The notes below the pieces were generated by a model. It saw nothing but the letters and a program-made list of their open reading frames with translations. It made no database searches and was not told the DNA's origin. This document shows, piece by piece, positions 33,219 through 57,378 of a stretch of DNA of 64,000 nt. Position 1 is the first letter of the stretch. The number at the start of each line of letters is the position of its first letter. The translations under genes and the position numbers were made by a program. Source of the DNA: Escherichia coli (GTDB lineage Bacteria > Pseudomonadota > Gammaproteobacteria > Enterobacterales > Enterobacteriaceae); the NCBI RefSeq assembly GCF_016903815.1, contig NZ_CP069973.1. One strand, given 5' to 3'.

Positions 33219-33489
33219 GATGTTACCGTAGTATGTGAGTATCCATCGAATAGACACCAAGCAAAAAAGCTCCCGAAGGAGCCTTCATTTTCACTTTTTT
33301 AAATCCAACGACAGACGGCTGGCATTTAAGTATTGTGAAATATTATCAAATGTAATCATCATTGATTTACAAAAGATACATTTTGCCCCGAAAGGATTCA
33401 TGTCAGAAACATCAAAAGATGATGTTCTATACTGGGAACCATGACAACACGGGCATCTAAAGTGAATATGGTTTGTAATATTGTCTACC

Positions 33490-33702
33490 TCAAAGCGCCA
33501 CTACATGAACAGCGGCAGGACCTTTAGGTCCGTTCTCAATACCAAATTCAACTTCCTGATTCTCAGTTAATGTTTTGAAATCGTTGCTCTGAATTGCTGA
33601 GAAATGGACAAACACATCTTTGCTGCCATCTTTCGGCGTGATGAAACCAAAACCTTTTTCAGGGTTAAACCATTTCACTAAACCAGTCATTTTGTTAGAC
33701 AT
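33490..33702 (-). CDS. cspI: Cold shock protein CspI-like
   Basis: [23 protein letters not shown]... with RNP1 and RNP2 motifs. Confidence 0.85.
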
Positions 33703-34064
33703 AATTATTACCTTTTGAAGAAATTAGCCCTTGGGCAGAATGGTCCGAAAAAAAATATCAGAGAGAAAAACCAACAAGGAAATCTCAAGAGGTACAAATA
33801 ATAAAATTATAACAATGACTGCTTCAGATAAATTTGTAACAAACCAGAACACCATTAACGCATGATTAACCACCCATAGCAAGGATTACTTTTGTAAAGA
33901 AAAACACAGCAATGAAAGAATAGCTTTATTTATTAATAAAACGTGTCATTCTGATTAAGACCTTTTATCTTACCCTTAAGATTTCAGGAATTTTGGCTCA
34001 TGGAAGAGTCCTTTTTATTTAAATTTTACATTCCGCGATGTAAATGTTCCGATTTAATATTACC

Positions 34065-36119: not shown

Positions 36120-36810
36120 CTCTTACCAGCCGCGCCCTAACAGGCGCACACGATCTGACATTTGCATCCAACTTCGTTACTTACGGCCCGTAAACGGGCT
36201 GCCCGGATAGGGAATCGATAACTGCTCTCCCATTTTATCCTCTTCAAGCTGGTGCTTTATGTAATCCTGTATCTTCGCCGTGTTCTTACCCACTGTATCG
36301 ACGTAGTACCCTCTGCACCAGAACTCCCTGTTCCTGTATTTGAATTTCAAATCACCAAACTGCTCGTAAAGCATCAGACTGCTTTTCCCTTTCAGATATC
36401 CCATAAACCCGGATACGCTCATTTTGGGCGGGATCTCCACAAGCATATGGATATGATCTGCACAGCATTCAGCTTCCAGAATCCGTACGCTTTTCCACTC
36501 ACACAGCTTTCTCAAAATACTGCCTATTGCTCTACGCTTCTCTCTGTAGAACACCTGTCTTCGGTATTTTGGCGCAAAAACTATGTGATATTTACAGTTC
36601 CATCGGGTGTGCGCTAAGCTCTTTTCGTTCCCCATTGGGACCCCCTTTTGATTTCTTGTTTGACACTTGCAGTTGCCAGACCGCAAGGTGTTTTAACAAA
36701 TCAAAAGGGGTTTTAATAACTGGCTCAAAGCTGAAAGCTTTCCGGAACCCCCAGCCTAGCTGGGGGTTTTCTGTGCACAATAAAAAACCCGCCTGAGCGG
36801 GTTTGAGATT
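36120..36810 (-). mobile_element. IS200-like insertion sequence (approximate bounds)
   Basis: 152-aa Y1 transposase with hairpins upstream (acccccagcctagctgggggtttt, aacccgcctgagcgggttt); about 0.7 kb, typical of IS200. Confidence 0.55.
36177..36635 (-). CDS. tnpA: IS200/IS605-family transposase TnpA (Y1 HUH)
   Basis: MGNEKSLAHTRWNCKYHIVFAPKYRRQ...HIHMLVEIPPK...; HUH motif (HIHML) and catalytic Tyr region. Confidence 0.85.
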   Translation of the reverse strand: MGNEKSLAHTRWNCKYHIVFAPKYRRQVFYREKRRAIGSILRKLCEWKSVRILEAECCADHIHMLVEIPPKMSVSGFMGYLKGKSSLMLYEQFGDLKFKYRNREFWCRGYYVDTVGKNTAKIQDYIKHQLEEDKMGEQLSIPYPGSPFTGRK

Positions 36811-37085
36811 GTGGTGCTTTTTGTGGGAGTCATCCACTTACGCACTTTGTTTTGCCATGCCAGCAGTTAGCTTCTGCTGTAAAACTATTCATGCAGCAAA
36901 CCTGCACTTCACCACAATGGTTAGCATACTTTTCCTGATTAAGATTTTGCCAAATATGCTAGCCATTGTTTCATGTATTGGACCTCCTTACTTTTTATTA
37001 AAGAGATCCAATATTCACTACTCTGTCCGTATCTCTACTCAGGCATCAGCCTTCTTCGTTATCGTATACAGACGAGCGATGAATT

Positions 37086-37301
37086 TTAATCAGTAATGAT
37101 GACATTTGCTGCTGCAGGACCTTTAGCACCACTCTCTATAGAGAAGGTAACCTTTTGACCTTCAAATAAGGTTCGATAATTATCATTCTGAATCGCAGAA
37201 AAATGCACAAACACATCTTTACTACCATCAACAGGAGAAATAAAGCCGAAACCTTTATCAGCGTTAAACCATTTTACTAAACCAGTCATTTTATTTGACA
37301 T
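37086..37301 (-). CDS. cspB: Cold shock protein CspB-like
   Basis: [23 protein letters not shown]..., 71 aa. Confidence 0.85.
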
Positions 37302-37601
37302 TCTACATTCCTTAACTTGAGCCTTTCGGCATAAATGGTTTGCATAACAGAAACGACTTCGTACTTAATTGGAGAGACTCAAAGAAGGAATAAGTGAATA
37401 ACACCTGAAATGAGAACTGCTTTAGTAAACTACTTCGTATATCGTCTGTTCTTCAAACCGACGCAATCATTAACGCATAGTTGAACATATGAAGCAATGT
37501 TTATTTTAGACATCCAGCCATCTTCAACCCCATCAAAAAACTATAGCTTTCTTCAGGAACGTGTGTATAGTGCGCCAAGTTATCAGTATTAAGGAATTTT
37601 T

Positions 37602-40397: not shown

Positions 40398-40649
40398 TTA
40401 TTCTCCTGAAAAAGCAGAAAAGCCAGCTTTTATTCCGATCTCTTTCAATGCCTGTAATGAAGTGACAAACTCACCTTCGCGCAAGATAAATCCGTCCGTG
40501 ACCCGAGCATCCACAAAATTAATTAACGCAGCCCCATTCTTTCGCAAACACATAATGCGGTAATGACTAACAAGATTTCCATTTTCAACGCACACAGCAT
40601 AGAGGCCATCTTCACAAAAAATTTTACGCAGTTCTTCGATGTTCATCAT
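40398..40649 (-). CDS. Hypothetical small protein
   Basis: 83-aa ORF between hokD and rem; no family recognised. Confidence 0.4.
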   Translation of the reverse strand: MMNIEELRKIFCEDGLYAVCVENGNLVSHYRIMCLRKNGAALINFVDARVTDGFILREGEFVTSLQALKEIGIKAGFSAFSGE

Positions 40650-40865: not shown

Positions 40866-41021
40866 TTACTCCTCAGGTTCGTAAGCTGTGAAGACAGCGA
40901 CCTCCGTCTGGCCGGTTCGGATTCGTACCTCGCAGAGGTCTTTCCTCGTTACCAGTGCCGTCACTATGACGGTTAAACAGATGACGATCAGGGCGATTAA
41001 CATCGCCTTTTGCTGCTTCAT
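40866..41021 (-). CDS. hokD: Hok-family toxin HokD (RelF)
   Basis: Minus-strand translation MKQQKAMLIALIVICLTVIVTALVTRKDLCEVRIRTGQTEVAVFTAYEPEE (51 aa), not in the ORF track. Confidence 0.85.
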   Translation of the reverse strand: MKQQKAMLIALIVICLTVIVTALVTRKDLCEVRIRTGQTEVAVFTAYEPEE

Positions 41022-44300: not shown

Positions 44301-44717
44301 TGTTAACAATAGCCTGCTTCTCCGTGCCTTTCGGCACGTAAGAGGCTAACCTACATGTGTCTAGCATGAAATTGGCCTCAGATTAATGTTAAGCGTCTTG
44401 CAGGACGCGTAATGTTAACTGGGGCTTTTCTCTATCTGCCTTTGGTGTTCGTGCCCGAGGCAGATAGCCTCAAGCACCCGCCGTGATTCTACAAAAACAT
44501 TACCCACCTTTCCAGCAATTCACAACAACTCCATGCAAATAGTAAGTAGAATAATAAGTTATTAGTATTAGCAATTTACTTAGTTTCTAATTTGTGCCAA
44601 TGATTTTCATTTTTGCATGAAAAATACCTTAACATTTTATATTTACTTACTATTTGTAAGCCCCATCAGTTCTTTCTGATGGCGGCTGGTATTTCAGTTC
44701 CAGATATAGTATATGCT

Positions 44718-45746
44718 TTACGCCTTAATAGGGTTAATCACATTTCCGCTATCCGTACCATAGTATTTTTTTGTAGTCATGCCTTGTTTATAATAATCAT
44801 TTAACAGTTTGAGAAAGTTTCTTCCTTGCCTCTCATCTTCTATGACTAATTTACCATGCTCATTGGTCTTAAACTCTTCGTTCTGAAACATTTTTAGCAC
44901 ATCATTCATAGCTTGAACATCATTCTTTTCCAGAACCGTATGGTTACCTTTCTCAGCGATATGAGTGAGAATTTTTCTCAGTGATGGCTTATGAAGAATA
45001 GCTTGTTCAATAACATCTAAACCTTCAATAAGATCAAGTTCTTTAATTGTATTTAATGTTTTTTGTGCAGCTTCTGTAAACTCAACCTCCAAGCCTACAA
45101 TAGCCTCAAAACTTTTCTTATGAAATACATAAAATTGATCTTTTATATAAATACAATCGATTTTGTCATCAAAATTGACTGCGCTGCCATCAAATGATCT
45201 TAACTCTTTATCTGTTTTATCAAACAAAGCGAATACGCGCTGAGTCATATTTTGTGGTTCATTTGTTGTGACTTTCCCCCTGCTGATTTTTCGGAAAGAA
45301 TAAGTGACGTCAGCCCCCTTTTGGACTTTAATACAATAGGCCCACAAATCATTCTGAACCTCAGCAAGAGAGGTAAGTACAACTGGTTTATCATTCTTTA
45401 TATCGTTATTAATAACTTTTGAAAACGATATCGCGTTATTCATAGCATAGGCATAAATTTTATTATCAATATCATCATCAATAACAGTATGCTTTTTCAT
45501 CACAATATCATCTTTCGAAGCATGAGAAATAATCTGGTTTGATAAAGTATACTTAAAAAATTTAGCAATATCTGGAGCGATTGGAGCTTTAATGATTTTA
45601 AAATCGAATTTATCAACAACTCTTGCGGTTCTACTCATACCCGCTTTAAGATGTCTAGTAATGAAATACAACGATATTTTCGCCGCATCATCATCCTTAA
45701 GTTGCTCAGCATACTCTAATAATTCTTCAAGCTTTAACATTTTCAT
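44718..45746 (-). CDS. Soluble partner protein of candidate defense operon (KwaB-like by architecture, unverified)
   Basis: 342-aa Lys/Asp-rich AT-rich ORF; start overlaps the stop of the upstream membrane-protein gene (ATGA). Confidence 0.5.
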   Translation of the reverse strand: MKMLKLEELLEYAEQLKDDDAAKISLYFITRHLKAGMSRTARVVDKFDFKIIKAPIAPDIAKFFKYTLSNQIISHASKDDIVMKKHTVIDDDIDNKIYAYAMNNAISFSKVINNDIKNDKPVVLTSLAEVQNDLWAYCIKVQKGADVTYSFRKISRGKVTTNEPQNMTQRVFALFDKTDKELRSFDGSAVNFDDKIDCIYIKDQFYVFHKKSFEAIVGLEVEFTEAAQKTLNTIKELDLIEGLDVIEQAILHKPSLRKILTHIAEKGNHTVLEKNDVQAMNDVLKMFQNEEFKTNEHGKLVIEDERQGRNFLKLLNDYYKQGMTTKKYYGTDSGNVINPIKA

Positions 45747-46357
45747 TCCTTATGGGATTCAGCATAAAAAAGTTTTGGGCCCACGTCCTCAACATCAAGA
45801 AGATCATCTTCCTCCAAATACTTTGATTTAGTCAAAACCATACCAGTGCGTTTTTTGTCGCTTTCTAAATCCAAATATGTAACTTGATATAAAGTATAAT
45901 TAATACTTATTGTAGGATTTATAAGTATCATGCTTGAATTAATATATATTAAAGCCGTTACCGTTAACAATATTGCTATAGGTATAACATTAGTTAAAGT
46001 GGATAGATCCTGAAATACAAACGGAATTATATATGTAAAAAGATAGCTTATTGATTCATTGTTTTTATTTTCAATATCTATAACTCTTACAGTTCTACCA
46101 CTAGTGGCGCATCGACGTTTTATATTTTTTAAAAAAATTGTTAATCCTACAATACCAAATAATGATAATACACCAATGACACTGACCGCGCCAAAGTATT
46201 TAAAGAAAATAGTTAATGATTCAACACTTATACCTTTCCAATTTAAATAGCTTCTATAAGTATACAATTGCACAAAACACATGATAAAGAATAGGGGAAG
46301 GTATGACACTATAAATAGCGAAACTCTAGCACCTAAATGTAGTTTATTTACTCTCAT
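45743..46357 (-). CDS. Four-helix membrane protein of candidate defense operon (KwaA-like by architecture, unverified)
   Basis: 204-aa ORF with four hydrophobic stretches (about residues 12-32, 55-76, 103-115, 124-140) and an acidic C-terminal tail. Confidence 0.5.
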   Translation of the reverse strand: MRVNKLHLGARVSLFIVSYLPLFFIMCFVQLYTYRSYLNWKGISVESLTIFFKYFGAVSVIGVLSLFGIVGLTIFLKNIKRRCATSGRTVRVIDIENKNNESISYLFTYIIPFVFQDLSTLTNVIPIAILLTVTALIYINSSMILINPTISINYTLYQVTYLDLESDKKRTGMVLTKSKYLEEDDLLDVEDVGPKLFYAESHKE

Positions 46358-46565: not shown

Positions 46566-47252
46566 TCACTCCTTCTCTTCTTTATCGTAGTGGAGTTGAC
46601 CAATTTTGATAAGAGGGCGTCCCTGAGATTTGCGGTGTAGATTGGTATCGCGCAGAGAATACACACAGCCACAATATTCCTGCTGATAGAATTTTTCGCG
46701 CTTGCTGATTTCAATCATGCGGGACGAGCCGCCCTGCTTGCGCCAGTTATAATCCCAGTACACCATGCCCGGATAATGCGCGACGGCTCGCCGCCCACAG
46801 TCGTTAACCTGCTGCATATTTTTCCAGCGTGAAATGCCCAGTGAACTGCTGATCACACTGAAACCATTTTCAGCAGCGTACAGCGCTGTCCGCTCAAAAC
46901 GCATGTCAAAACACATGGTACAACGGATCCCCCTCTCGGGCTCCCATTCCATTCCTTTGGCACGTTCAAACCAGTTGTCTGTGTCGTAATCAGCATCAAT
47001 AAATGGCACGCCGTGTTGTTCAGCAAAGCGAATATTCTCATCCTTACGAATTAAATACTCTTTCTGAGGATGAATGTTCGGGTTGTAGAAAAAGATGGTA
47101 TAGTCGATTCTCGAGGCCTGAAGTGCCTCCATCACTTCACCGGAACATGGAGCACAGCAAGAGTGCAGTAGTAGTTTGTTTGCCCCGTTTGGGAGCTCCA
47201 ATTTAGGCCGTTTGAAATCAGCAATAGTCATAAATATTTTTATTGGGGTCAT
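46566..47252 (-). CDS. DUF208 / QueH-like protein (putative epoxyqueuosine reductase family)
   Basis: [11 protein letters not shown] and FFYNPNIHP motifs plus additional Cys (CTMC, CGC) as recalled for the QueH/DUF208 family. Confidence 0.6.
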
Positions 47253-47433
47253 AAAAATAGCACAGAGTGTGGCATCAGAGCAGGGCTATCGGGAATAGAT
47301 GTCTAAATCTGGTAATATCTGCTTTTGACGCATAGCAGACAACCACGCTAGCTCAATCCTGTGCCGTGAAAATGTCAATTCACATCTGAACTAATGCTCT
47401 TTAATCTAGTTACGTCTATAAATAACGAAAATT

Positions 47434-47832
47434 TCACTGATAAAATGCCAGTATGCGCTGCATAACTTCGCTCTTCCGGCACTCACAGCAAATTATGTTT
47501 TGGTGCCTGTCATAACGACGTATTTCTCCGTCAGGTAATGACCAGATAAGGTCCGGATCAACCACAGATGTTTTCTTCACCTTTGCCCTCGAGAGTTTTT
47601 TGCGGGCGTTTTGCCAGTCCTTACGAGCCTGTTCAGACGGGAATAACCCGTAGCCAGAGTTATATACATCACCACTGGCAACCAGCTCTCTGGCGAGAAC
47701 GCTCATCAGATATCTTGTCGCACCTGTCTTGGCTTCCAGTTGCCGTAACGTCTCGCGCCCACTCCGGCGTACTAGCTCAACAACCTGCCCCTTGATTTTT
47801 TCCCGCTCTTCTTGTGTAAAAACTTTTGCCAC
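47434..47832 (-). CDS. Hypothetical prophage protein
   Basis: 132-aa basic ORF downstream of the replication initiator, with a CCEC motif; no family recognised. Confidence 0.4.
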   Translation of the reverse strand: MAKVFTQEEREKIKGQVVELVRRSGRETLRQLEAKTGATRYLMSVLARELVASGDVYNSGYGLFPSEQARKDWQNARKKLSRAKVKKTSVVDPDLIWSLPDGEIRRYDRHQNIICCECRKSEVMQRILAFYQ

Positions 47833-47872
47833 AAGTCCCCCTTAAAATTACCTCATGACCTGAAATCAAAAC

Positions 47873-48838
47873 TTATCCTCTGAAACCAGGCGGAATTTCT
47901 GTATCCGGTTCAGAAATATGATTAACACAACGCTGTACAGGTGAACGCCCCAGGCGGATGACCAGTTCGTCCCATTTTTCGCGGAGCTTTGACGGGCTCA
48001 TGATGTTTTTTACCCAGAATGGATCCCGCTGTACCCGACCAAACATTTCACAAATTTGTCTGTGACTTCTGCCATCCAGCATCCGCATTGTGCGCACATC
48101 ATTGGCCCAGACAGTCCAGTTAGGCTCTTTTGGTCGCATGATCTCGCCATCATCACTGGCGGCCTGTTCGTAGAGACCCACGATCCGCCCCCATATCCAC
48201 TGCGCACACGCCAGATCCTCCTGGCTACCCCACTGGCGTTTTTTCGCACTAAACACAACTGCGCCAGGGTGCCGGATTAAAAAATCCTGTTCAGCCGTCT
48301 GCGGGTCCGGTTGCGAAGCTTCCGGACGAAAAGTGTTTTTATTCTCTGTAGTAATCTCTGTTGTATTCTCTGTAGGATCATCGGGCCATTTTGACCCGAT
48401 GACATTGGGTCGTTTTGAACCAATGGAGCGTTTCATTTTGACCTCTTCCATCGTGTCATTTTGACCTGATGGAGCGGCGCATTTTGAACCGATGGATTCG
48501 CTCAATTTGCCATCATCTAAAAGCTCGCTCCCATAGTTAATCGTGTAGAAATTGGTCATATCGCGCTTTGATTTATTGAGCTTTTCACAACGCAAAAGCC
48601 CCAGCGTTTTCAGACTTGCAAACGCGCGCTTTAACGTTGACTCTGACCAGAATGGGAACTGTTCCAGCCATTGTTCCGTTGTGTTGTAAATCCAGCGAAC
48701 ACCATCACATTCCATGCCGGAATTGGTATCTCTCAACCAGTAATGCAACTGCTGCAACACAATGGCTTCATTTAAGCCAATCTTCATCGCAAGCTGTGTG
48801 TTTATAACCAGTGGGCGTTCAGCAAAAAGAAGGCTCAT
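47873..48838 (-). CDS. Replication initiator (lambda O-like replisome organizer) containing ori iterons
   Basis: N-terminal replisome-organizer-like region; internal 23-bp iterons encode repeated SIGSK motifs; start uncertain (48892 or 48838). Confidence 0.65.
   Translation of the reverse strand: MSLLFAERPLVINTQLAMKIGLNEAIVLQQLHYWLRDTNSGMECDGVRWIYNTTEQWLEQFPFWSESTLKRAFASLKTLGLLRCEKLNKSKRDMTNFYTINYGSELLDDGKLSESIGSKCAAPSGQNDTMEEVKMKRSIGSKRPNVIGSKWPDDPTENTTEITTENKNTFRPEASQPDPQTAEQDFLIRHPGAVVFSAKKRQWGSQEDLACAQWIWGRIVGLYEQAASDDGEIMRPKEPNWTVWANDVRTMRMLDGRSHRQICEMFGRVQRDPFWVKNIMSPSKLREKWDELVIRLGRSPVQRCVNHISEPDTEIPPGFRG
48385..48500. repeat. Origin iterons: five direct repeats at 23-bp spacing
   Basis: Core (a/g)ttttga(c/a)c at 48388, 48412, 48435, 48458 and 48481, inside the initiator gene as in lambda ori. 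Confidence 0.65.
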
Positions 48839-49340
48839 AATTCCATCCAGCTTTTTGTTGGTATTGCTGTCGATACGCAAGCTTGAAAGCAATTGCTTTT
48901 TCTATAAGTTCGTCAGTTTCACGATCCACTACGGCAGGATCAGCAAAAAGCAGTCCGGACTCCACCACATCGCCATATTCTTTGTTTAACCCGGCGATCA
49001 TGCACGTGATGCTTTTTCCGTCAGTAATTTCACGATACAACCTGAAATCACTAATCCGGATAGCCTCCATAATCGCAGGCACTAGCGCCGTGAACTTTTC
49101 ACGCTTATCCCTGGTGTCGATAGCCTTCCAGCGTTCGAATATCTTCACTCGATTAACGCCAAGCGCTCGCTGATCAACCGCGCCACCTTCATCTGTGACA
49201 CGCTGAACATCGATGTTCGGGCGCTCTTTCAAAGCCCAGAATGCTTCAGTGATTAATATCGTCGCCTGCTCCTGTGTCATTCCTGGTCGACATATCCAGG
49301 CATCCAGAGCCTCACGAGCCTGTTCAGGAGTGATTTTCAT
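48819..49340 (-). CDS. Hypothetical early-region protein (YdaT-position)
   Basis: 173-aa ORF directly downstream of the cro-like dicC. Confidence 0.45.
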   Translation of the reverse strand: MKITPEQAREALDAWICRPGMTQEQATILITEAFWALKERPNIDVQRVTDEGGAVDQRALGVNRVKIFERWKAIDTRDKREKFTALVPAIMEAIRISDFRLYREITDGKSITCMIAGLNKEYGDVVESGLLFADPAVVDRETDELIEKAIAFKLAYRQQYQQKAGWNYEPSFC

Positions 49341-49554
49341 TGTTCAACCGCCCCGCCCGCTTCGTCTTACGATATTCATCATAAACTTTGGGATCATACT
49401 GAAGCTCCCCGCCAGATGCCTCCTGTAGACGCATCGCGCGACCTTCAGGAACCAGTATCCCCCAAGCAGCAACACTTGCCAGCCTCACTCCTGCGGCATT
49501 GGCAAGCTTTGTTTTGCTGCCAAAAAAAGTAATTGCGTCAACTTTAAGCATCAA
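49324..49554 (-). CDS. dicC: Cro-like repressor DicC
   Basis: 76-aa ORF ...FFGSKTKLANAAGVRLASVAAW...LVPEGRAMRLQEASGGELQYDPKVYDEY...; divergent from dicA. Confidence 0.85.
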   Translation of the reverse strand: MMLKVDAITFFGSKTKLANAAGVRLASVAAWGILVPEGRAMRLQEASGGELQYDPKVYDEYRKTKRAGRLNNENHS

Positions 49555-49563
49555 AGCCCCCTC

Positions 49564-49582
49564 TTGTTAGACTTTTCTAACA
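49564..49582. promoter_or_regulatory. Operator palindrome in the dicC-dicA divergent promoter region
   Basis: ttgttaga-cttt-tctaaca inverted repeat. Confidence 0.6.
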
Positions 49583-49631
49583 TTATTGTGCGCGGGATAC
49601 CTAAGTCAAGAAAAATTAGAATTACCTAACT

Positions 49632-50039
49632 ATGGATACAAGAACCCTGGGCCAGCGAGTTCTGGCGCGACGAAAAGAATTACGCTTAACACAACGAGAA
49701 GCCGCGCGCCTCGCTGGAGTTGCTCACGTCACAATTTCACAATGGGAAAGAGACGAAACCCAGCCAGTCGGAAAACGATTGTTTGCTTTAGCGGATGCTC
49801 TGAAGTGCTCACCTACATGGCTAATGTTTGGTGACGAAGACAAGGCACCAGTGCCTGCACAAGAACTTCATGTGGAAACAGAGCTAACTCCCAACCACAA
49901 AGAATTGATCGAATTATTCGATGCTCTTCCATCTTCCGAGCAGGAAGCCTTGCTGTCTGAAATGCGCGCAAGAGTAGAAAACTTCAACAAACTCTTCGAA
50001 GAAATGCTTAAAGCGCGTAAAAATAAATCAATAAAATAA
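49632..50039 (+). CDS. dicA: HTH-XRE repressor DicA
   Basis: 135-aa ORF ...LTQREAARLAGVAHVTISQWERDETQPVGKRLFALADALKCSPTWLMFGDED... Confidence 0.9.
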   Translation: MDTRTLGQRVLARRKELRLTQREAARLAGVAHVTISQWERDETQPVGKRLFALADALKCSPTWLMFGDEDKAPVPAQELHVETELTPNHKELIELFDALPSSEQEALLSEMRARVENFNKLFEEMLKARKNKSIK

Positions 50040-50074
50040 CATTCTTTTCAAGTGATTAGTTGCGTCCACCCTTT

Positions 50075-50128
50075 TTGTTAGATCAATCTAACAAAAAACA
50101 CTTGCCTCTCATGTTAGGTTATTCTAAA
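50075..50128. promoter_or_regulatory. Two operator-like palindromes at the dicB-operon promoter
   Basis: ttgttaga-tcaa-tctaacaa (50075..50094) and tgttag-gttat-tctaaa (50112..50128) between dicA and ydfA. Confidence 0.6.
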
Positions 50129-50207
50129 TTATTTTCCATCAAGACACCGCACGGTGTTCTCAGCAAACAGTTCCGCTACCCCGGCGTTAAGGGGAAATGA
50201 GGTCAGC

Positions 50208-50363
50208 ATGGATACTATCGATCTTGGCAACAACGAATCTCTGGTGTACGGCGTGTTTCCAAACCAGGACGGCACGTTCACCGCAATGACGTATACCAAA
50301 AGCAAAACGTTTAAAACCGAAAATGGTGCCCGTCGCTGGCTGGAAAGAAACTCAGGTGAGTGA
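50208..50363 (+). CDS. ydfA: Small prophage protein YdfA
   Basis: MDTIDLGNNESLVYGVFPNQDGTFTAMTYTKSKTFKTENGARRWLERNSGE (51 aa). Confidence 0.8.
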   Translation: MDTIDLGNNESLVYGVFPNQDGTFTAMTYTKSKTFKTENGARRWLERNSGE

Positions 50364-50364
50364 T

Positions 50365-50940
50365 ATGGATTTCGACACAATCATGGAAAAGGCTTACGAA
50401 GAATACTTCGAAGGCCTTGCCGAAGGCGAAGAAGCTCTCAGCTTCAGTGAGTTTAAACAGGCACTCAGAATAAGAATGTGCTCTCACAATGACGCGGAGC
50501 ACAAATATGAGAAGCAAAATCAGACCGCAGAAAATTTTGTTCTGGAACCCGGAGAAACGCTTTTCAAAATTCCCGTTACGTGCCCCATTTGCGGTTTTAC
50601 ATCAGAAGAACTTGACGACTCCTGTAACAATCAGGAAACAACCAAGTATGTCGAAGATGATACCGAGTGCGCACGAAGAACGATTATATCCACGAGTCCA
50701 AACTCCAGGACCAATAAATCTCACTTTGAGAGGGTGATTAATCCACTCCCCCAAACCAATAAAAAAGATGCCGGAGGACAAAAAACCCAATGGAACAACG
50801 GGATATCTGTCAAAAAAAGACGTTCCATTAAAGACAAACAACGCAGCGCCAACAACTGTAAGCGCTTTATACCAGTAATCAATTTTCATGTTCTTAAGCG
50901 GATTTATTGGTGGTTGCGACATTGCTTAATGAATCCTTAA
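50365..50940 (+). CDS. YdfB/YdfC-region protein, continuous 191-aa reading frame
   Basis: Starts MDFDTIMEKAYEEYFEGLAEGEE (YdfB-like); with zinc-ribbon-like CPICG and basic C-terminus. Confidence 0.5.
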   Translation: MDFDTIMEKAYEEYFEGLAEGEEALSFSEFKQALRIRMCSHNDAEHKYEKQNQTAENFVLEPGETLFKIPVTCPICGFTSEELDDSCNNQETTKYVEDDTECARRTIISTSPNSRTNKSHFERVINPLPQTNKKDAGGQKTQWNNGISVKKRRSIKDKQRSANNCKRFIPVINFHVLKRIYWWLRHCLMNP

Positions 50941-51198
50941 AACTGTGGTGATTTTAAGGATACCACCTCGCCTGACGTGGTTAAAAGCAGGCACACAACA
51001 CGAAAGCGCACGGCGAAGTTCGTCTCACTGTACGGTGTCGTTAAATTTAATTCGACCGTGCGCTTCCGGTTGTGGCAACCCGCGAAATGGCGCGGCGGTA
51101 AGTATGGCGGGGTTATTCCTTCCCCGTTGAGGACACCGAGTTGTCAGGTTGACCATACGCTTAAGTGACAACCCCGCTGCAACGCCCTCTGTTATCAA

Positions 51199-51256
51199 TT
51201 TTCTGGTGACGTTTGGCGGTATCAGTTTTACTCCGTGACTGCTCTGCCGCCGTTTT
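51199..51256 (+). ncRNA. dicF: DicF small regulatory RNA
   Basis: tttctggtgacgtttggcggtatcagttttactccgtgactgctctgccgcc followed by a T-run; matches the DicF sequence from memory. Confidence 0.8.
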
Positions 51257-51426
51257 TAAAGTGAATTTTGTGATGCGGTGAATGCGGCTAAGCGCACGCG
51301 GAACAGTTAAAACCAAAAACAGTGTTATGGGTGGATTCTCTGTATCCGGCGTTAATTGTTAACTGGTTAACGTCACCTGGAGGCACCAGGCACTGCATCA
51401 CAAAATTCATTGTTGAGGACGCGATA

Positions 51427-51615
51427 ATGAAAACGTTATTACCAAACGTTAATACGTCTGAAGGTTGTTTTGAAATTGGTGTCACTATCAGTAACCCTGT
51501 ATTTACTGAAGATGCCATTAACAAGAGAAAACAAGAACGGGAGCTATTAAATAAAATATGCATTGTTTCAATGCTGGCTCGTTTACGTCTGATGCCAAAA
51601 GGATGTGCACAATGA
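51427..51615 (+). CDS. dicB: Cell division inhibitor DicB
   Basis: MKTLLPNVNTSEGCFEIGVTISNPVFTEDAINKRKQERELLNKICIVSMLARLRLMPKGCAQ (62 aa). Confidence 0.85.
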   Translation: MKTLLPNVNTSEGCFEIGVTISNPVFTEDAINKRKQERELLNKICIVSMLARLRLMPKGCAQ

Positions 51616-51803
51616 ATTCAGCATTTGCGCTTGTTCTGACAGTTTTTCTTGTTTCCGGAGAGCCAGTTGATATTGCAGTCAGTGTTCACAGGACAATGCA
51701 GGAGTGTATGACTGCAGCAACCGAACAGAAAATTCCCGGTAACTGTTACCCGGTCGATAAAGTTATTCACCAGTATAATATCGAAATCCCGGCAGGTCTT
51801 TAA
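51612..51803 (+). CDS. ydfD: Small prophage protein YdfD
   Basis: MNSAFALVLTVFLVSGEPVDIAVSVHRTMQECM... (63 aa), overlapping the dicB stop. Confidence 0.8.
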   Translation: MNSAFALVLTVFLVSGEPVDIAVSVHRTMQECMTAATEQKIPGNCYPVDKVIHQYNIEIPAGL

Positions 51804-51896
51804 AACAGTTCCGTAATAAATATCCGGTTTCATTCTTATATGCCAGCAATGGCAGGGATTTGTTCATCCTTAAATCTGTCATGAGGTTAAAACAAA

Positions 51897-54368
51897 ATGA
51901 GTAAAGTCTTTATTTGCGCCGCTATTCCTGACGAACTGGCAACAAGGGAAGAAGGCGCTGTGGCTGTAGCCACAGCCATTGAAGCTGGCGACGAACGCCG
52001 TGCTCGAGCAAAATTTCACTGGCAATTCCTGGAACATTATCCGGCTGCTCAGGACTGCGTTTATAAATTTATTGTCTGCGAGGATAAACCTGGCATACCC
52101 CGCCCTGCCCTCGATTCATGGGATGCTGAATATATGCAGGAAAACCGCTGGGATGAGGAGTCTGCTTCTTTTGTCCCGGTTGAGACTGAATCCGATCCGA
52201 TGAACGTCACTTTTGACAAGCTGGCCCCTGAAGTACAGAACGCTGTCATGGTTAAGTTCGACACATGTGAAAACATCACCGTTGATATGGTTATTAGCGC
52301 ACAGGAATTGTTGCAGGAAGACATGGCAACATTCGACGGACATATCGTTGAAGCGTTGATGAAAATGCCAGAAGTTAACGCCATGTATCCGGAGCTTAAG
52401 TTGCACGCCATTGGGTGGGTTAAGCATAAATGTATTCCTGGTGCTAAATGGCCCGAAATTCAGGCAGAGATGCGCATCTGGAAAAAACGTCGCGAAGGTG
52501 AACGCAAGGAAACCGGAAAATACACGTCTGTTGTTGATCTCGCCCGCGCCAGAGCCAATCAACAGTACACTGAAAATTCAACAGGAAAAATCAGCCCGGT
52601 CATTGCTGCCATTCATCGCGAATACAAGCAGACATGGAAAACACTGGATGACGAACTGGCCTACGCTCTCTGGCCTGGTGATGTGGATGCCGGAAACATT
52701 GACGGCAGCATCCATCGCTGGGCAAAAAATGAAGTTATCGATAACGACCGCGAAGACTGGAAGCGTATCTCGGCATCAATGCGCAAACAGCCTGATGCCC
52801 TTCGCTACGACCGCCAAACTATTTTTGGCCTTGTCCGTGAACGTCCGATCGACATTCACAAAGATCCCGTAGCACTGAACAAATATATCTGCGAATACCT
52901 GACGACAAAGGGCGTGTTTGAGAATGAAGAAACAGACCTGGGCACTGTTGATGTTCTCCAGTCATCAGAAACACAAACTGATGCAGTGGAAACTGAGGTA
53001 TCTGATATCCCAAAAAATGAAACCGCGCCGGAAGCTGAACCATCTGTAGAGCGTGAGGGGCCGTTCTATTTCCTCTTCGCAGATAAGGACGGAGAAAAAT
53101 ACGGTCGCGCAAACAAACTTTCTGGTCTGGATAAGGCACTGGCTGCTGGCGCCACTGAAATCACAAAAGAAGAATATTTTGCCCGAAAAAATGGCACATA
53201 CACGGGCTTACCGCAAAATGTAGATACCGCTGAAGATTCAGAACAACCAGAGCCGATGAAAGTTACCGCTGACGAAGTAAACAACATTATGCAGGCAGCC
53301 AATATCATCCAGCCTGACGCCGATAAGTTGCTTGCTGCATCACGTGGTGAATTTGTTGAAGGGATTAGTGACCCGAATGATCCGAAATGGGTTAAGGGGA
53401 TCCAGACCCGCGATTCTGTGAACCAGAACCAGCATGAATCGGAACGGAACTACCAAAAAGCGGAACAAAACAGCCCAAATGCGTTACAAAACGAGCCAGA
53501 AACGAAACAGCCTGAATCAGTGGCGCAACAGGAAGTGGAAAAAGTCTGCACCGCCTGCGGTCAGACCGGCGGCGGCAACTGCCCTGATTGTGGCGCGGTA
53601 ATGGGCGACGCAACATACCAGGAAACATTCGATGAAGAGTATCAGGTTGAAGTTCAGGAAGATGATCCGGAGAAAATGGAAGGCGCTGAACATCCACACA
53701 AGGAGAACACTGGCGGCAATCAGCATCACGATAGCGATAATGAAACTGGCGAGACGGCAGATCACTCAATTAAGGTGAACGGTCATCACGAAATCACATC
53801 CACCAGCAGGACGTGTGACCATCTAATGATCGACCTTGAAACCATGGGAAAAAATCCTGATGCCCCGATCATCTCAATAGGTGCAATATTTTTCGATCCG
53901 CAAACCGGAGATATGGGACCGGAATTTAGTAAGACTATCGATCTGGAAACTGCTGGCGGAGTCATTGATCGGGACACCATTAAATGGTGGCTTAAGCAAT
54001 CACGCGAAGCGCAATCTGCCATTATGACCGATGAAATCCCGTTAGATGATGCACTGTTACAATTGCGGGAATTTATCGACGAAAACTCCGGTGAATTTTT
54101 TGTTCAGGTCTGGGGAAATGGAGCCAACTTCGACAACACGATTTTGCGCCGTTCATACGAACGGCAGGGGATCCCCTGCCCGTGGCGTTACTACAACGAT
54201 CGCGATGTACGCACAATCGTTGAGCTGGGGAAAGCCATAGACTTCGATGCCAGAACGGCTATTCAATTCGAAGGTGAGCGCCATAATGCACTTGATGACG
54301 CCCGTTACCAGGCAAAATACGTTTCAGTTATCTGGCAAAAACTGATCCCGAGTCAGGCTGATTCTTAA
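51897..54368 (+). CDS. Prophage exonuclease-family protein (YdfE-like N-terminus, DnaQ-like 3'-5' exonuclease C-terminal domain)
   Basis: 823-aa ORF; C-terminal DLETMG...[13 protein letters not shown] resembles the DEDDh exonuclease fold; acidic low-complexity middle region. Confidence 0.65.
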
Positions 54369-54692: not shown

Positions 54693-54792
54693 CTAAAAGC
54701 CACACTAACGTAACCGGCTCATTTAAACCGTCTGGTCTGTTTCCTCCGGCTCTACAAAAATAATGTCCATCATTTTTAATGGACACTATCGT

Positions 54793-55440
54793 ATGAAACA
54801 CCGGACCTGGATCACTGAAGCTTTACGTCTTCACTTTGAAGAACATTTACCCCGGGTTGTGGCCGGGCGTCGCCTGGGTGTACCAAAATCAACAGTTTGT
54901 AGTATGTTCGTGCGCTTTCGGAGAGCTGGCCTTTCGTGGCCTTTGCCCGCAGGCATGTCGGAGCAGGAACTTGATGCCTGCCTTTACGGACAATTTTCCA
55001 CGGTACCAGTCGTACGTCCTGAAAGCACCGTTATATCCGAAGCCCCCGTGGTAAAAAAACGTCCCCGGCGGCCCAACTTCCCTTATGAGTTTAAAATCGC
55101 CTTAGTGGAGCAGTCACTGCAGCCCGGAGCCTGTGTGGCGCAGATCGCCCGGGAAAACGGAATCAACGATAACCTGCTCTTCAACTGGCGCCATCAATAC
55201 CGGAAAGGTGGCCTGCTGCCTTCCGGAAAAAATATGCCGGCACTGCTTCCCGTGACGTTAACGCCGGAGCCGGATAATAAAATCCCGGCCCCCGCACAGG
55301 AACCAGAGCAGATAAATACACCGTCCGACAGTCTGTGTTGTGAGCTGGTTCTGCCGGCCGGAACTCTCAGGCTTAAAGGTAAACTGACGCCGGCGTTATT
55401 ACAGACACTTATCCGCGAAATAAAAGGGAGCAGCCACTGA
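54793..55440 (+). CDS. IS66-family accessory protein TnpA
   Basis: HTH-containing ORF with KRPRRPNFPYEFKIALVEQSL...; start uncertain (54763 or 54793). Confidence 0.7.
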   Translation: MKHRTWITEALRLHFEEHLPRVVAGRRLGVPKSTVCSMFVRFRRAGLSWPLPAGMSEQELDACLYGQFSTVPVVRPESTVISEAPVVKKRPRRPNFPYEFKIALVEQSLQPGACVAQIARENGINDNLLFNWRHQYRKGGLLPSGKNMPALLPVTLTPEPDNKIPAPAQEPEQINTPSDSLCCELVLPAGTLRLKGKLTPALLQTLIREIKGSSH

Positions 55441-55787
55441 TGATATCTCTCCCTGCAGGTTCGCGTATCTGGCTGGTTGCAGGTATCACCGATATGCGAA
55501 ATGGCTTTAACGGCCTGGCATCAAAAGTTCAGAACGTCCTGAAGGATGACCCGTTCTCCGGACACCTGTTCATCTTCCGCGGACGCCGGGGTGACCAGAT
55601 AAAAGTGTTGTGGGCTGACAGTGACGGACTGTGCCTCTTCACCAAACGCCTGGAGCGGGGCCGCTTCGTCTGGCCAGTCACCCGTGACGGCAAGGTGCAC
55701 CTTACTCCGGCTCAGTTATCCATGCTTCTTGAAGGTATCAACTGGAAGCACCCGAAACGAACGGAACGCGCTGGAATCCGCATATAA
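55440..55787 (+). CDS. IS66-family accessory protein TnpB
   Basis: 115-aa ORF MISLPAGSRIWLVAGITDMRNGFNGLA... Confidence 0.85.
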   Translation: MISLPAGSRIWLVAGITDMRNGFNGLASKVQNVLKDDPFSGHLFIFRGRRGDQIKVLWADSDGLCLFTKRLERGRFVWPVTRDGKVHLTPAQLSMLLEGINWKHPKRTERAGIRI

Positions 55788-55806
55788 CCCGTTGTAAAGT
55801 GAGGAT

Positions 55807-57378
55807 ATGGACACCTCACTTGCTCATGAGAACGCCCGCCTGCGGGCACTGTTGCAGACGCAACAGGACACCATCCGCCAGATGGCTGAATACAACCGCC
55901 TGCTCTCACAGCGGGTGGCGGCTTATGCTTCCGAAATCAACCGGCTGAAGGCGCTGGTTGCGAAACTGCAACGTATGCAGTTCGGTAAAAGCTCAGAAAA
56001 ACTTCGTGCAAAAACCGAACGGCAGATACAGGAAGCACAGGAGCGAATCAGCGCACTTCAGGAAGAAATGGCGGAAACGCTGGGTGAGCAATATGACCCG
56101 GTACTGCCATCCGCCCTGCGCCAGTCTTCAGCCCGTAAACCGTTACCGGCCTCACTTCCCCGTGAAACCCGGGTTATCCGGCCGGAAGAGGAATGCTGTC
56201 CTGCCTGTGGTGGTGAACTCAGTTCTCTGGGATGTGATGTGTCAGAGCAACTGGAGCTTATCAGCAGCGCCTTTAAGGTTATCGAAACACAACGTCCGAA
56301 ACAGGCCTGTTGCCGGTGCGACCATATCGTGCAGGCACCAGTACCTTCAAAACCCATTGCACGCAGTTATGCCGGAGCGGGGCTTCTGGCCCATGTTGTC
56401 ACCGGGAAATATGCAGACCATCTGCCGTTATACCGCCAGTCAGAAATATACCGTCGTCAGGGAGTGGAGCTGAGCCGTGCCACACTGGGGCGCTGGACAG
56501 GTGCTGTTGCTGAACTGCTGGAGCCGCTGTATGACGTCCTGCGCCAGTATGTGCTGATGCCCGGTAAAGTCCATGCTGATGATATCCCCGTCCCGGTCCA
56601 GGAGCCGGGCAGCGGTAAAACCCGGACAGCCCGGCTGTGGGTCTACGTCCGTGATGACCGTAACGCCGGTTCACAGATGCCCCCGGCGGTCTGGTTCGCG
56701 TACAGTCCGGACCGGAAAGGTATCCATCCACAAAATCACCTGGCCGGTTACAGCGGTGTGCTTCAGGCCGATGCTTACGGTGGTTACCGGGCGTTATACG
56801 AATCCGGCAGAATAACGGAAGCCGCGTGTATGGCTCATGCCCGGAGAAAAATCCACGATGTGCATGCAAGAGCGCCCACCTACATCACCACGGAAGCCCT
56901 GCAGCGTATCGGTGAACTGTATGCCATCGAGGCAGAGGTCCGGGGCTGTTCAGCAGAACAGCGTCTGGCGGCAAGAAAAGCCAGAGCCGCGCCACTGATG
57001 CAGTCACTGTATGACTGGATACAGCAACAGATGAAAACACTGTCGCGTCACTCAGATACGGCAAAAGCGTTCGCATACCTGCTGAAACAGTGGGATGCAC
57101 TGAACGTGTACTGCAGTAATGGCTGGGTGGAAATCGACAACAACATCGCAGAGAACGCCTTACGGGGAGTGGCCGTAGGCCGGAAAAACTGGATGTTCGC
57201 GGGTTCCAACAGCGGTGGTGAACATGCGGCGGTGTTGTACTCGCTGATCGGCACATGCCGTCTGAACAATGTGGAGCCAGAAAAGTGGCTGCGTTACGTC
57301 ATTGAACATATCCAGGACTGGCCGGCAAACCGGGTACGCGATCTGTTGCCCTGGAAAGTTGATCTGAGCTCTCAGTAA
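55807..57378 (+). CDS. IS66-family transposase TnpC
   Basis: 523-aa ORF with N-terminal leucine zipper, CxxC zinc-finger region and DDE core. Confidence 0.85.

Follow-up and report, generated by a model that had tools for sequence, protein, structure and literature searches.

The dicC–dicA locus analysed here very probably represents a Qin-family immunity (lysogeny-type) switch that controls the dicBF early-left operon, in an allelic form unlike that of Escherichia coli K-12. The features of a Qin-type switch are found together: divergent dicC and dicA genes with a short, P22 C2-like DicA, a P22 Cro-like DicC, an Oc-type inverted repeat over the -10 and start of dicC, a second promoter, located 3' of dicA and reading into ydfA...dicF-dicB, with related operators, DicF with an upstream RNase III hairpin, an intact dicB downstream of dicF, and the Rem antirepressor on the same prophage (Table 1). 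All coordinates refer to the window, i.e. the whole 64-kb stretch of DNA that was analysed. A P22/lambda-like bistable switch silencing dicBF is already textbook knowledge for K-12, and the dic switch described here changes nothing fundamental in that respect.

Table 1. Coordinates of the switch, its operators and promoters, the dicB operon and rem.
Feature	Coordinates	Strand	Basis
rem, DicA antirepressor in K-12	40398..40649	-	83/83 identical to K-12 Rem; function from PMC10448788
dicC homologue, 75 aa, Cro-like regulator	49324..49551	-	Pfam P22_Cro; RefSeq annotation in strain 7/2
Immunity cassette	49447..50143	.	Pairwise alignment with K-12; first and last mismatch positions
Operator Oc (site 1), perfect 7-4-7 palindrome TGTTAGA-CTTT-TCTAACA	49565..49582	.	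Pattern search
dicC promoter, predicted; -35 TTGACT (49609-49604), 16-nt spacer, -10 AATAAT (49587-49582)	49582..49609	-	Promoter scan, 10/12 matches
Fourth operator-like site, Oa homologue, AATTAGA-ATTA-CCTAACT (AATTAGAATTACCTAACT)	49614..49631	.	Match to core TTAG-N6-CTAA
dicA homologue, 135 aa, short P22 C2-type HTH repressor	49632..50039	+	Pfam HTH_3, 54.2 bits
Distal dicB-promoter operator (site 2), perfect TGTTAGA-TCAA-TCTAACA	50076..50093	.	Pattern search
dicB-operon promoter, predicted dicBp homologue, TTGCCT (50102-50107)-17-TAAATT (50125-50130)	50102..50130	+	Sequence reading and K-12 homology
Proximal dicB-promoter operator (site 3), TGTTAGG-TTAT-TCTAAAT	50112..50129	.	11/14 positions, 3 mismatches
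Conserved 5' leader of dicB-operon transcript	50143..50194	+	Folding of single leaders
ydfA (DUF1391)	50208..50363	+	100% identical to K-12 YdfA
ydfB remnant	50365..50466	+	K-12 identity stops at 50463; RefSeq pseudogene without C-terminus
Unannotated 106-aa membrane-protein gene, antisense to dicB operon	50602..50922	-	Full-length homologues
Long hairpin with RNase III site for the 190-nt DicF precursor	50994..51074	+	Cut predicted at ~51063 by homology
DicF sRNA, 53 nt, followed by T-run	51200..51252	+	Rfam RF00039 match at 51201-51252, 72.5 bits (gathering score 48)
dicB, 62 aa	51427..51615	+	Pfam DicB, 136.8 bits; 62/62 identical to K-12 DicB
ydfD (DUF1482), annotated lysis protein in K-12	51612..51803	+	61/63 identical to K-12

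A Qin-type prophage with an exchanged immunity cassette

The window consists of a lambdoid E. coli prophage of the Qin type that is almost complete; over 20.4 kb it differs from strain 7/2 of E. coli by one mismatch. The prophage occupies the same chromosomal locus as K-12 Qin, with rem, hokD, relBE, ydfV and flxA on one side and int and rspB on the other, and shares the gene order of the K-12 dic locus (dicC-dicA-ydfABC-dicF-dicB-ydfD; PMC3441716, PMC10448788). DicB, YdfA and Rem are 100% identical in both strains, DicF is one base off, and DicC is 86% identical to its K-12 counterpart, whereas DicA is only 57% identical. Within the switch, the pairwise alignment restricts the divergence from K-12 to the immunity cassette, of which the window carries another allele with other central operator bases. 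The cassette comprises the DicC N-terminus, Oc, Oa, the whole of dicA and the dicB-promoter operators to approximately +1, so that the swap consists of the DNA-reading parts together with their targets. The same immunity allele is present in about one tenth of complete E. coli genomes, including a BL21(DE3) derivative.

K-12 Qin is far less complete than this prophage. Only the latter retains, downstream of dicC, a YdaT-like gene and a DUF977 gene, as well as an integrase, an excisionase, an exonuclease of 823 aa, a Q-like antiterminator, lysis genes, and a full lambda-like head and tail set. This gene content would fit more than a domesticated controller of cell-division toxins: the switch might still govern lysis and lysogeny of a phage that can be induced, in which dicF and dicB would be accessories of the early-left region. 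DicA-type repressors also occur in phages induced by UV, such as Cronobacter phiES15. However, the prophage is interrupted by several IS elements (IS1, IS200, an ISNCY remnant, and IS66 between xis and int), some of its tail-fibre genes are pseudogenes, and no free phage with the window immunity allele was found in the phage collection, the best match being 89% over a prophage fragment. We consider control of an inducible phage unlikely; it is compatible with the operator assignment given below.

DicA and DicC are short, P22-like regulators

The DicC homologue scores 45.9 bits with Pfam P22_Cro (cut-off 30.2), matches P22 Cro in the PDB (1RZS, E 1e-6), and is the first gene of a leftward operon, followed by the ydaT-like gene and replication genes. 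The DicA homologue matches the N-terminal domain of P22 C2 (PDB 1ADR/2R1J, E 1e-18), the PDB matches spanning residues 1-71 only. The identification of dicC and dicA in the first-pass annotation is thus well founded, given the P22_Cro and HTH_3 domains and the identities to K-12. For the 135-aa DicA homologue Pfam gives HTH families only, with neither an S24 peptidase nor a C-terminal dimerisation domain among them. It does not have the S24 domain plus Ala-Gly cleavage site of an SOS-cleavable lambdoid repressor and, lacking the S24 domain, it is therefore not cleavable with the help of RecA.

Apart from these protein similarities, the locus shares with immC of Salmonella phage P22 (C2, Cro, OR, OL) the 18-bp inverted-repeat operators, the divergent repressor and cro genes, and a second operator set at the early-left promoter. 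It differs from immC in the missing C-terminal S24/oligomerisation domain of DicA, which in K-12 is controlled by an antirepressor (PMC10448788), in the half-site sequence, and in having two separated sites in contrast to three adjacent operators per promoter in P22. The lambda cI/Cro system (OR1-3, PRM, PR, OL, PL) is likewise a bistable repressor pair in which the repressor activates its own weak leaderless promoter, operators lie over the -10 and -35 of the lytic promoters, and the repressor gene reads in the direction of the early-left promoter. In contrast to lambda, the cro-type regulator of the dic locus resembles P22 Cro and not lambda Cro, induction is not SOS-driven, and the operators are arranged differently, with centre-to-centre spacings of 49 bp and 36 bp.

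Gifsy-type repressors are also short and uncleaved, and a small antirepressor protein from another part of the prophage inactivates them (PMC10448788); in the window, rem lies approximately 9 kb from the switch on the same prophage. The Gifsy antirepressors, however, are LexA-controlled, whereas scanning the entire window for LexA boxes, with at most 3 mismatches allowed, yielded a single poor match at 7255 and none near rem or the switch. An SOS control of rem is hence unsupported.

Four operator-like sites surround dicA

Three palindromes of the TGTTAGA-N4-TCTAACA type had been proposed in the first-pass annotation. Two of them, Oc and the distal dicB-promoter operator, are perfect; the third, the proximal operator, is imperfect, and a fourth operator-like site directly upstream of dicA had been missed. 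The sites share the 8-base core TTAG-N6-CTAA. Exactly four copies of it are present in the 64 kb (0.59 expected; none of 100 shuffles reached four), and a 563-bp stretch around dicA contains them all. The 12-base pattern TGTTAG-N6-CTAACA (up to 1 mismatch) is matched only by Oc and the distal operator (0.19 expected), and the two exact 14-base palindrome matches lie 511 bp apart. The proximal operator taken alone is not significant, as about two such 3-mismatch matches are expected per window, which would fit the palindromes being functionless A/T-rich symmetry arising by chance. For the palindromes as a group, this explanation was rejected on account of the clustering of the cores and the class-specific covariation described below, with fixed positions and class-specific half-site changes across the 16 alleles with mappable sites, and we regard it as next to impossible. 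The proximal operator was accepted despite its chance-level match because of its position and its conservation across alleles, and its imperfection is attributed to the right half doubling as the -10 hexamer.

The final base of the dicC -10 and the predicted dicC start (~49575) fall within Oc. This operator is the positional homologue of K-12 Oc (TTGTTAGTCATAACTAACAA), with which it shares the outer half-sites TTGTTAG...CTAACA. K-12 Oc overlaps the dicC -10 and is bound by DicA in vivo, and a single A-to-C change in its CTAACA half-site abolishes DicA binding (PMC3441716); this half-site is kept in the window allele. The fourth site covers the putative dicA -10 (TAGAAT, 49617-49622) and reaches the dicA ATG. 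In K-12, no DicA binding to Oa and Om was detected in an in vivo assay (PMC3441716), and the fourth site may therefore not be a DicA site. The 80-bp dicC-dicA intergenic region contains only these two core sites, 49 bp apart centre to centre. Unlike K-12, the window allele has no recognizable Om-like middle site, and the three closely spaced sites between repressor and cro that make up a tripartite lambdoid operator were not found in it.

Downstream of dicA, the distal and proximal operators bracket the -35 of the predicted dicB-operon promoter; an A-tract lies 3' of the distal operator just upstream of the -35, and the proximal operator overlaps the spacer and, with its right half, forms the -10. 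Two sites likewise surround the -35/-10 of K-12 dicBp. The earlier proposal that sites 2 and 3 mark the expected dicB-operon promoter therefore appears correct. Even for K-12, the evidence for the DicA site at dicBp has been described as low and its location as unknown (PMC7567609), so that in either strain the downstream operators are placed by sequence logic. Our comparative operator map supports the location of the DicA sites at the dicB promoter.

The distal operator is the core of a perfect 26-bp palindrome (50073-50098) located 34 nt past the dicA stop codon, where it might instead be read as an RNA hairpin or terminator ending dicA transcription. No other terminator-like structure is present there, a GC-rich hairpin with T-run follows dicA in the alleles L004, L007, L008 and L050, and the palindrome arms exceed the 18-bp operator in several class-I alleles. 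On the other hand, the stem is A/T-rich and followed by AAAAAAC rather than a U-run, the terminator scan calls the palindrome on neither strand, the arm extension is not conserved (L006 has CTTTCCGTTAGA on the left), and Oc and the proximal site repeat its half-site, which co-varies with DicA. The scan found no intrinsic terminator between the dicA stop codon and the distal operator in the window allele, and the reading of the palindrome as a terminator was rejected as highly improbable. The lack of the hairpin and T-run after dicA, by which the window allele differs from K-12, nevertheless counts against our preferred explanation of the locus as an immunity switch, in that it leaves the exclusion of read-through from dicA into the dicB operon unaccounted for.

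Operator sequences co-vary with the type of DicA

Seventeen distinct DicA alleles were compared, 16 of them with mappable sites. The allele of Cronobacter phiES15 (L008) was excluded from the class test as it misfits the 18-bp core pattern, its half-sites apparently being spaced differently. Among the 16 mappable alleles, the sites retain their layout. Oc lies 67-68 nt and the Oa-type site 15-18 nt before the dicA ATG in 16/17 alleles each, and the start-to-start spacing from the distal to the proximal operator is 35-36 bp in the 12 alleles in which the core scan found both. TTGNNN between the two operators and TAANNT in the proximal right half form the promoter layout in the listed alleles.

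Position 2 of the operators is G in alleles with an 'LTQR' DicA (Oc 11/11, distal 10/10, proximal 10/10) and in none of the five 'LSQA(A/S)L' alleles, which carry C or T instead, as in CCTTAG; the association with the DicA helix-2 type reaches a Fisher p of 2-3e-4 at each site, with effectively two clades and shared ancestry uncorrected. The arms of Oc change symmetrically, position 17 being C in class I and G in class II, and the left half-site of the proximal operator co-varies with the DicA class in 15/15 alleles. A third intergenic site with one core mismatch is present at -42 in four of the five class-II alleles only. The analysis shows the sequence elements themselves, that they cluster non-randomly and are conserved, and that they co-vary with the type of DicA. 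The pattern suggests DicA specificity classes that differ at operator base pair 2/17, namely G:C (TGTTAG) versus C:G (CCTTAG). As the two classes do not differ in the recognition helix, specificity is likely determined by the beginning of DicA helix 2, Thr-Gln-Arg versus Ser-Gln-Ala. If true, the DicA proteins of the window and of K-12 would share a specificity class despite their identity of 57%, and might cross-repress. That DicA would bind the sites of the window allele and repress both promoters is supported indirectly, by the Oc binding and dicBp repression seen in K-12 and by this covariation.

Alternatively, the four sites could mainly be operators of the Cro-like DicC, with DicA using only Oc or a subset of them. 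DicC ChIP-seq peaks flank dicA on both sides in K-12, and their motif TT[ACT]G...C[GAT]AA equals the shared core (PMC11430063). The class-specific G at position 2 is never present in the fourth site, which is identical in the window and PPompW alleles, their DicC proteins being 92% but their DicA proteins only 66% identical, and the unbound Oa and Om of K-12 point in the same direction. Against this, the DicA helix-2 type is matched without exception by position 2 at Oc and at the two dicB-promoter sites, whereas DicC is nearly unchanged between the DicA classes, and in K-12 a dicA deletion induces dicBp 22-fold while a dicC deletion has no effect (PMC10448788). We consider a predominant use of the sites by DicC unlikely. 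Most likely, DicA and DicC share sites, as cI and Cro do, which is a refinement of the DicA operator assignment and not a true alternative to it.

Promoters and proposed mode of action of the switch

The predicted dicC promoter has the same position as in K-12, in which the dicC start site was mapped by 5'RACE (PMC3441716). The dicB-operon promoter is the positional counterpart of K-12 dicBp (TTGACC-17-TAATCT), with a predicted start at ~50137-50138; it has only 8/12 consensus matches and was not listed by the consensus scan. The dicA mRNA of K-12 is leaderless, with a leader of <10 nt (PMC4681348), and the window shares this near-leaderless geometry, with the dicA start predicted at 49629-49632. 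For the assignment of proteins to sites, the start sites and the physiological output we rely on K-12 work and homology.

We propose that DicA is a dimer of the 135-aa P22 C2-like HTH protein without self-cleavage domain, which would bind 18-20-bp inverted repeats of the TGTTAG-N6-CTAACA type. At Oc, it would block the dicC promoter, whose -10 and start are overlapped by this operator, and would stimulate the weak, nearly leaderless dicA promoter, as shown in K-12. Occupation of the distal and proximal operators, 36 bp apart, would exclude RNA polymerase from the dicB-operon promoter. Inactivation of DicA, whether by the Rem antirepressor or through its intrinsic instability, would allow DicC to be made, and DicC would bind the shared TTAG-N6-CTAA cores including the fourth site over the dicA -10 and start, thereby locking the switch in the 'on' state. 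The transcript of the dicB operon would then extend across ydfA, what remains of ydfB and the replaced cassette. It would be cut by RNase III in the long conserved hairpin and trimmed by RNase E to DicF, and it would also encode DicB and YdfD. DicF would block ftsZ translation, and DicB together with MinC would block formation of the FtsZ ring. In line with this model, DicA and DicC of K-12 form a bistable switch, in which DicA represses dicBp 22-fold and Rem derepresses it 165-fold (PMC10448788). The state of the switch would decide whether the carrier strain filaments or dies, as DicF and DicB stop cell division. DicB of K-12 is also protective against some phages.

The dicB operon: leader, DicF, dicB and a replaced cassette

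The leader of the dicB-operon transcript consists of a first hairpin (50143-50158), the motif GTTCCGC (50170-50176) and a second hairpin (50179-50194). With a MAFFT alignment of the leaders as input, RNAalifold recovered no more than an alternative hairpin of 4 bp with a single compensatory change; as the leaders were misaligned, they were folded one by one. The leader was found in 16/16 cases examined, irrespective of the next gene. The stems vary in sequence with the hairpins being kept, for which the covariation evidence is modest. The leader of ~55 nt might serve in antitermination, like a nut or put signal, in stabilising the 5' end or in processing; no description of a cis-acting element of this kind was found in the literature cited here. 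In a search for a second copy, the leader motif GTTCCGCYANCC matched exactly only at 50170, without a nutR-like partner, and its three 1-mismatch matches are within chance and located in unrelated genes. DicA specificity classes read at base pair 2/17, a fourth site dedicated to DicC and a leader acting in cis as an RNA element go beyond the published K-12 picture; as a joint proposal we put them forward tentatively.

The first-pass annotation had described an intact dicF-dicB module following dicA within its span. DicF, the processing hairpin and dicB are indeed intact, and DicF falls within that span, but dicB (51427-51615) lies beyond its end at 51256, and the upstream operon does not have the K-12 arrangement. 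The processing hairpin (-35.6 kcal/mol, z -3.7) has the same stem as in K-12 with a different apical loop; in K-12, the 190-nt DicF species owes its 5' end to RNase III (PMC10448788). The only change in DicF relative to K-12 is C-to-G at 51252, adjoining the T-run. An Rfam scan by E-value of positions 47000-54000 returned only DicF and a sub-threshold STnc100-like match. No intrinsic terminator was found by the terminator scan on the + strand from the dicB promoter to dicF.

Between the promoter and dicF, a cassette from 50463 to ~50993 replaces the 3' end of K-12 ydfB and ydfC, so that ydfB is truncated and ydfC is absent. The K-12-like ydfA-ydfB-ydfC order is hence not found in the window; it is an accessory, non-defining feature of the family. 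Within the cassette lies the antisense gene for the 106-aa membrane protein, which has full-length homologues with 36-58% identity in Yersinia, Herminiimonas and Reinekea, matches nothing in Pfam, PHROG or PADLOC, and is left without annotation by RefSeq in most genomes. Such a gene, lying within the operon in antisense orientation, could disturb the transcription of dicF and dicB further downstream, which also counts against our explanation of the locus. On the + strand, ydfB continues into a 191-aa reading frame, whose sole match is phrog_35040 (205 positions, function unknown), almost end to end; this continuation is probably a shadow of the antisense gene.

Operator sites of the dic switch

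The first-pass annotation had described a DicA/DicC switch with three operator palindromes followed by an intact dicF-dicB module. This observation is confirmed, and its interpretation, corrections apart, is supported. The system is the known dic locus of Qin, the cryptic prophage of K-12, in a common alternative immunity allele and represents no new kind of system; the present analysis adds a four-site operator map, backed by covariation across alleles.

All three palindromes are present (see table), and site 2 is enclosed by a perfect 26-bp palindrome (50073-50098). Site 3 alone is not significant, since chance would give about two matches with three mismatches in each window. The 8-base core TTAG-N6-CTAA occurs exactly four times in the 64 kb (49567, 49616, 50078 and 50114) against an expectation of 0.59, and none of 100 shuffled sequences reached four. 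The count of three thus overlooked a fourth site, the Oa homologue, which covers the -10 and start of dicA.

Features of the dic region and its divergence from K-12
Feature	Position	Strand	Description
rem	40398-40649	-	83/83 identical to K-12 Rem
dicC homologue	49324-49551	-	75 aa; Pfam P22_Cro, PDB 1RZS
Site 1 (Oc, dicC promoter)	49565-49582		TGTTAGACTTTTCTAACA; perfect; sequence reading and pattern search
Fourth site (Oa homologue)	49614-49631		AATTAGAATTACCTAACT; contains core occurrence at 49616
dicA homologue	49632-50039	+	135 aa; HTH_3, no other domain (Pfam)
Site 2 (distal dicB-promoter operator)	50076-50093		TGTTAGATCAATCTAACA; perfect; sequence reading and pattern search
Site 3 (proximal dicB-promoter operator)	50112-50129		TGTTAGGTTATTCTAAAT; three mismatches; sequence reading and pattern search
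Leader hairpin 1	50143-50158	+	GACACC-GCAC-GGTGTT
Leader motif	50170	+	GTTCCGC
Leader hairpin 2	50179-50194	+	CCCC-GGCGTTAA-GGGG
106-aa ORF	50602-50922	-	predicted membrane protein; antisense in dicB operon, in cassette replacing ydfB' and ydfC
DicF	51201-51252	+	Rfam 72.5 bits, gathering score 48
dicB	51427-51615	+	intact
Window vs K-12	up to 49446		identical
Window vs K-12	49447-50143		divergent
Window vs K-12	50144-50462		identical save one base
Window vs K-12	50463 to about 50993		divergent
Window vs K-12	from arms of long hairpin onward		similar or identical again

In vivo, DicA of K-12 occupies Oc and leaves Oa and Om unbound, repressing dicC and activating dicA (PMC3441716). The dicB-operon promoter is repressed 22-fold by DicA and derepressed 165-fold by its antirepressor Rem, and spontaneous switching requires DicC (PMC10448788); a Reg-Seq study lists the DicA site at dicB as of unknown location and low evidence (PMC7567609). 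ChIP-seq of DicC found binding to be strongest at the dicC promoter, inferred sites on both sides of dicA and gave the motif TT[ACT]G...C[GAT]AA, and induction of DicC lowered dicA 48- to 84-fold (PMC11430063). Oc and the two dicB-promoter sites would be used by DicA, and the shared cores by DicC, for which the fourth site is probably preferred.

Promoters

The promoter scan placed a dicC promoter, TTGACT-16-AATAAT, at 49609-49582 on the minus strand, matching the position of its K-12 counterpart; there the start site is known from 5'RACE, and the -10 overlaps Oc (PMC3441716). In the window this -10 adjoins site 1 and overlaps its right end; the spacer of site 1 contains the predicted start (about 49575). 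Upstream of dicA a good -10 (TAGAAT, 49617-49622) lies nine bases from the ATG, with neither a -35 nor a Shine-Dalgarno sequence present; transcription of K-12 dicA requires DicA to occupy Oc (PMC3441716). Downstream of dicA, TTGCCT (50102-50107), a 17-nt spacer and TAAATT (50125-50130) align with TTGACC-17-TAATCT of K-12. With a score of only 8/12 this candidate was not listed by the scan, and we call it the putative dicB promoter by homology and conservation.

Covariation of operators and DicA across alleles

DicA loci from annotated phages, genomes and IMG/VR were reduced to 17 distinct alleles, the window counted, and their core sites were located automatically. The layout is shared by 16 of them, with one palindrome starting 67-68 nt and a second site 15-18 nt ahead of the dicA ATG. 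Downstream, both sites were detected by the scan in 12 alleles, and there their starts are 35-36 bp apart, with a TTGNNN hexamer between the two sites and the sequence TAANNT in the right half of the proximal one. Because this half doubles as the -10, in no allele is the proximal operator perfectly symmetric.

The alleles fall into two classes. Helix 2 of DicA starts with Leu-Thr-Gln-Arg in class I (11 alleles including the window and K-12; TGTTAG...CTAACA) and with Leu-Ser-Gln-Ala-Ala-Leu in class II (five alleles including PPompW of O157; CCTTAG...CTAAGG at Oc), a Klebsiella phage variant of the latter having Ser-Ala-Leu instead of Ala-Ala-Leu. Position 2 of the operator is G throughout class I (Oc 11/11, distal 10/10, proximal 10/10) and C or T in class II (G in 0/5), an association with a Fisher p of 2-3e-4 per site when the shared ancestry of the alleles is ignored. 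At Oc the change is symmetric and affects both arms. Since the recognition helix AHVTISQWER is common to both classes, we infer from these sequences that the discriminating contact is made by the start of helix 2 or by the N-terminal arm.

The fourth site carries G at position 2 in neither class, and its sequence is identical in the window and PPompW alleles, whose DicC proteins are 92% and DicA proteins 66% identical. A third, middle operator-like site, TCGTAGAGAAACCTAAGT, lies about 42 nt before the dicA ATG in four of the five class II alleles (L004, L061, L062 and L071), where the conserved CCTAAGTCAA also holds the dicC -35; the core-site scan found it absent from class I, the window included.

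Mosaic structure of the locus

The window was compared base by base with K-12 (see table). The first divergent block contains the N-terminus of DicC with its HTH, the intergenic operators, the whole of dicA, and the downstream operators and promoter to about +1, as expected of a swapped lambdoid "immunity region". Among 5426 complete E. coli genomes, about 565 carry the window allele (at least 80% identity), including a BL21(DE3) derivative, and some 667 more carry alleles with about 69% identity.

Residues 1-71 of the DicA homologue align to the N-terminal domain of the P22 C2 repressor (PDB 1ADR, 2R1J; E 1e-18). The protein is 57% and the DicC homologue 86% identical to its K-12 counterpart; YdfA (51/51) and DicB (62/62) are unchanged and YdfD differs at two residues (61/63). 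Rem is likewise unchanged while its presumed target DicA is so divergent. The C-terminal half of DicA, which is conserved, may be what Rem recognises, or Rem may have no action on the window allele. No LexA box was found near rem.

The dicB-operon transcript

DicF follows dicA, as had been annotated, and differs from K-12 by one base (C-to-G at 51252, adjoining the T-run); dicB is indeed intact but lies beyond the end assigned to the module (51256). The terminator scan detected no plus-strand terminator between the dicB promoter and dicF. In a long hairpin at 50994-51074 the stem is conserved with K-12 and the apical loop differs. RNase III generates the 5' end of the 190-nt DicF precursor in K-12 (PMC10448788), and this end maps by homology to the 3' arm of the hairpin (about 51063). 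Since the stem is kept and holds the precursor end, the DicF maturation signals, like dicB, are intact. The dicF-dicB spacer, almost identical to K-12, gave a below-threshold STnc100 match (51250-51459, plus strand; Rfam 34.5 bits, gathering score 47, E 9e-5).

The operon transcript begins with a conserved 5' leader (50143-50194, plus strand) of two hairpins and the motif GTTCCGC, without a second copy in the window. Such a leader, motif included, follows the DicA-controlled promoter in 16/16 leaders whatever the next gene, including those of Klebsiella and Cronobacter phages. The stem sequences vary but the hairpins are retained, and the formal evidence for covariation is modest. The leader might act as a nut/put-like signal, a stabiliser or a processing signal.

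A hairpin and T-run terminator after dicA, present in the K-12, PPompW, Klebsiella and Cronobacter alleles, is absent between the dicA stop and the distal operator (50040-50075) of the window allele. From ydfA to the long hairpin the window is unlike K-12, ydfB being cut short at 50463 and ydfC absent. The 106-aa ORF in the replacing cassette has full-length homologues in Yersinia, Herminiimonas and Reinekea (36-58% identity) and is therefore a real gene. It lacks RefSeq annotation in most genomes and matched no known family in Pfam, PHROG or PADLOC. An inverted repeat with 9-bp arms (50934-50960) would sequester its Shine-Dalgarno sequence.

The surrounding prophage

The 2.4 kb at 49300-51700 match many E. 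coli chromosomes at 100% identity, and the window differs from strain 7/2 (NZ_CP023820) by one base across 20.4 kb. The RefSeq annotation of that strain, from which the gene order was taken, shows a lambdoid prophage of about 50 kb at the same locus as Qin and far more complete. Tail, head and terminase genes are followed by lysis genes, cspB/cspI, the Q-like ydfT, rem, hokD, relBE, ydfV, flxA, a Kiwa pair, QueH, a DUF977 gene, a 322-aa hypothetical protein and a YdaT-like gene. Then come dicC, dicA, ydfA, ydfB', dicB and ydfD, an exonuclease gene, xis, an IS66 element and int, which adjoins chromosomal rspB.

The IS66-family element (tnpA, tnpB and ISCro1 transposase; about 54763-57378) lies between the excisionase and integrase genes and, together with IS1, IS200 and ISNCY remnants, may impair prophage excision. 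Between the ISNCY remnant and QueH the prophage carries the complete Kiwa anti-phage defence pair (44721-46357, minus strand; PADLOC 523.6 bits for KwaB and 336.6 bits for KwaA). A sok antitoxin RNA (44308-44479, minus strand; Rfam 105.6 bits) in a stretch that has no hok gene in the RefSeq annotation suggests an unannotated second hok/sok module in addition to hokD (about 40866-41021). Two cspA-type thermoregulator leaders and one STnc490 sRNA match (33463-33848, 36645-36768 and 37070-37462, minus strand) sit in the cold-shock cargo, adjoining cspI, cspB and IS200.
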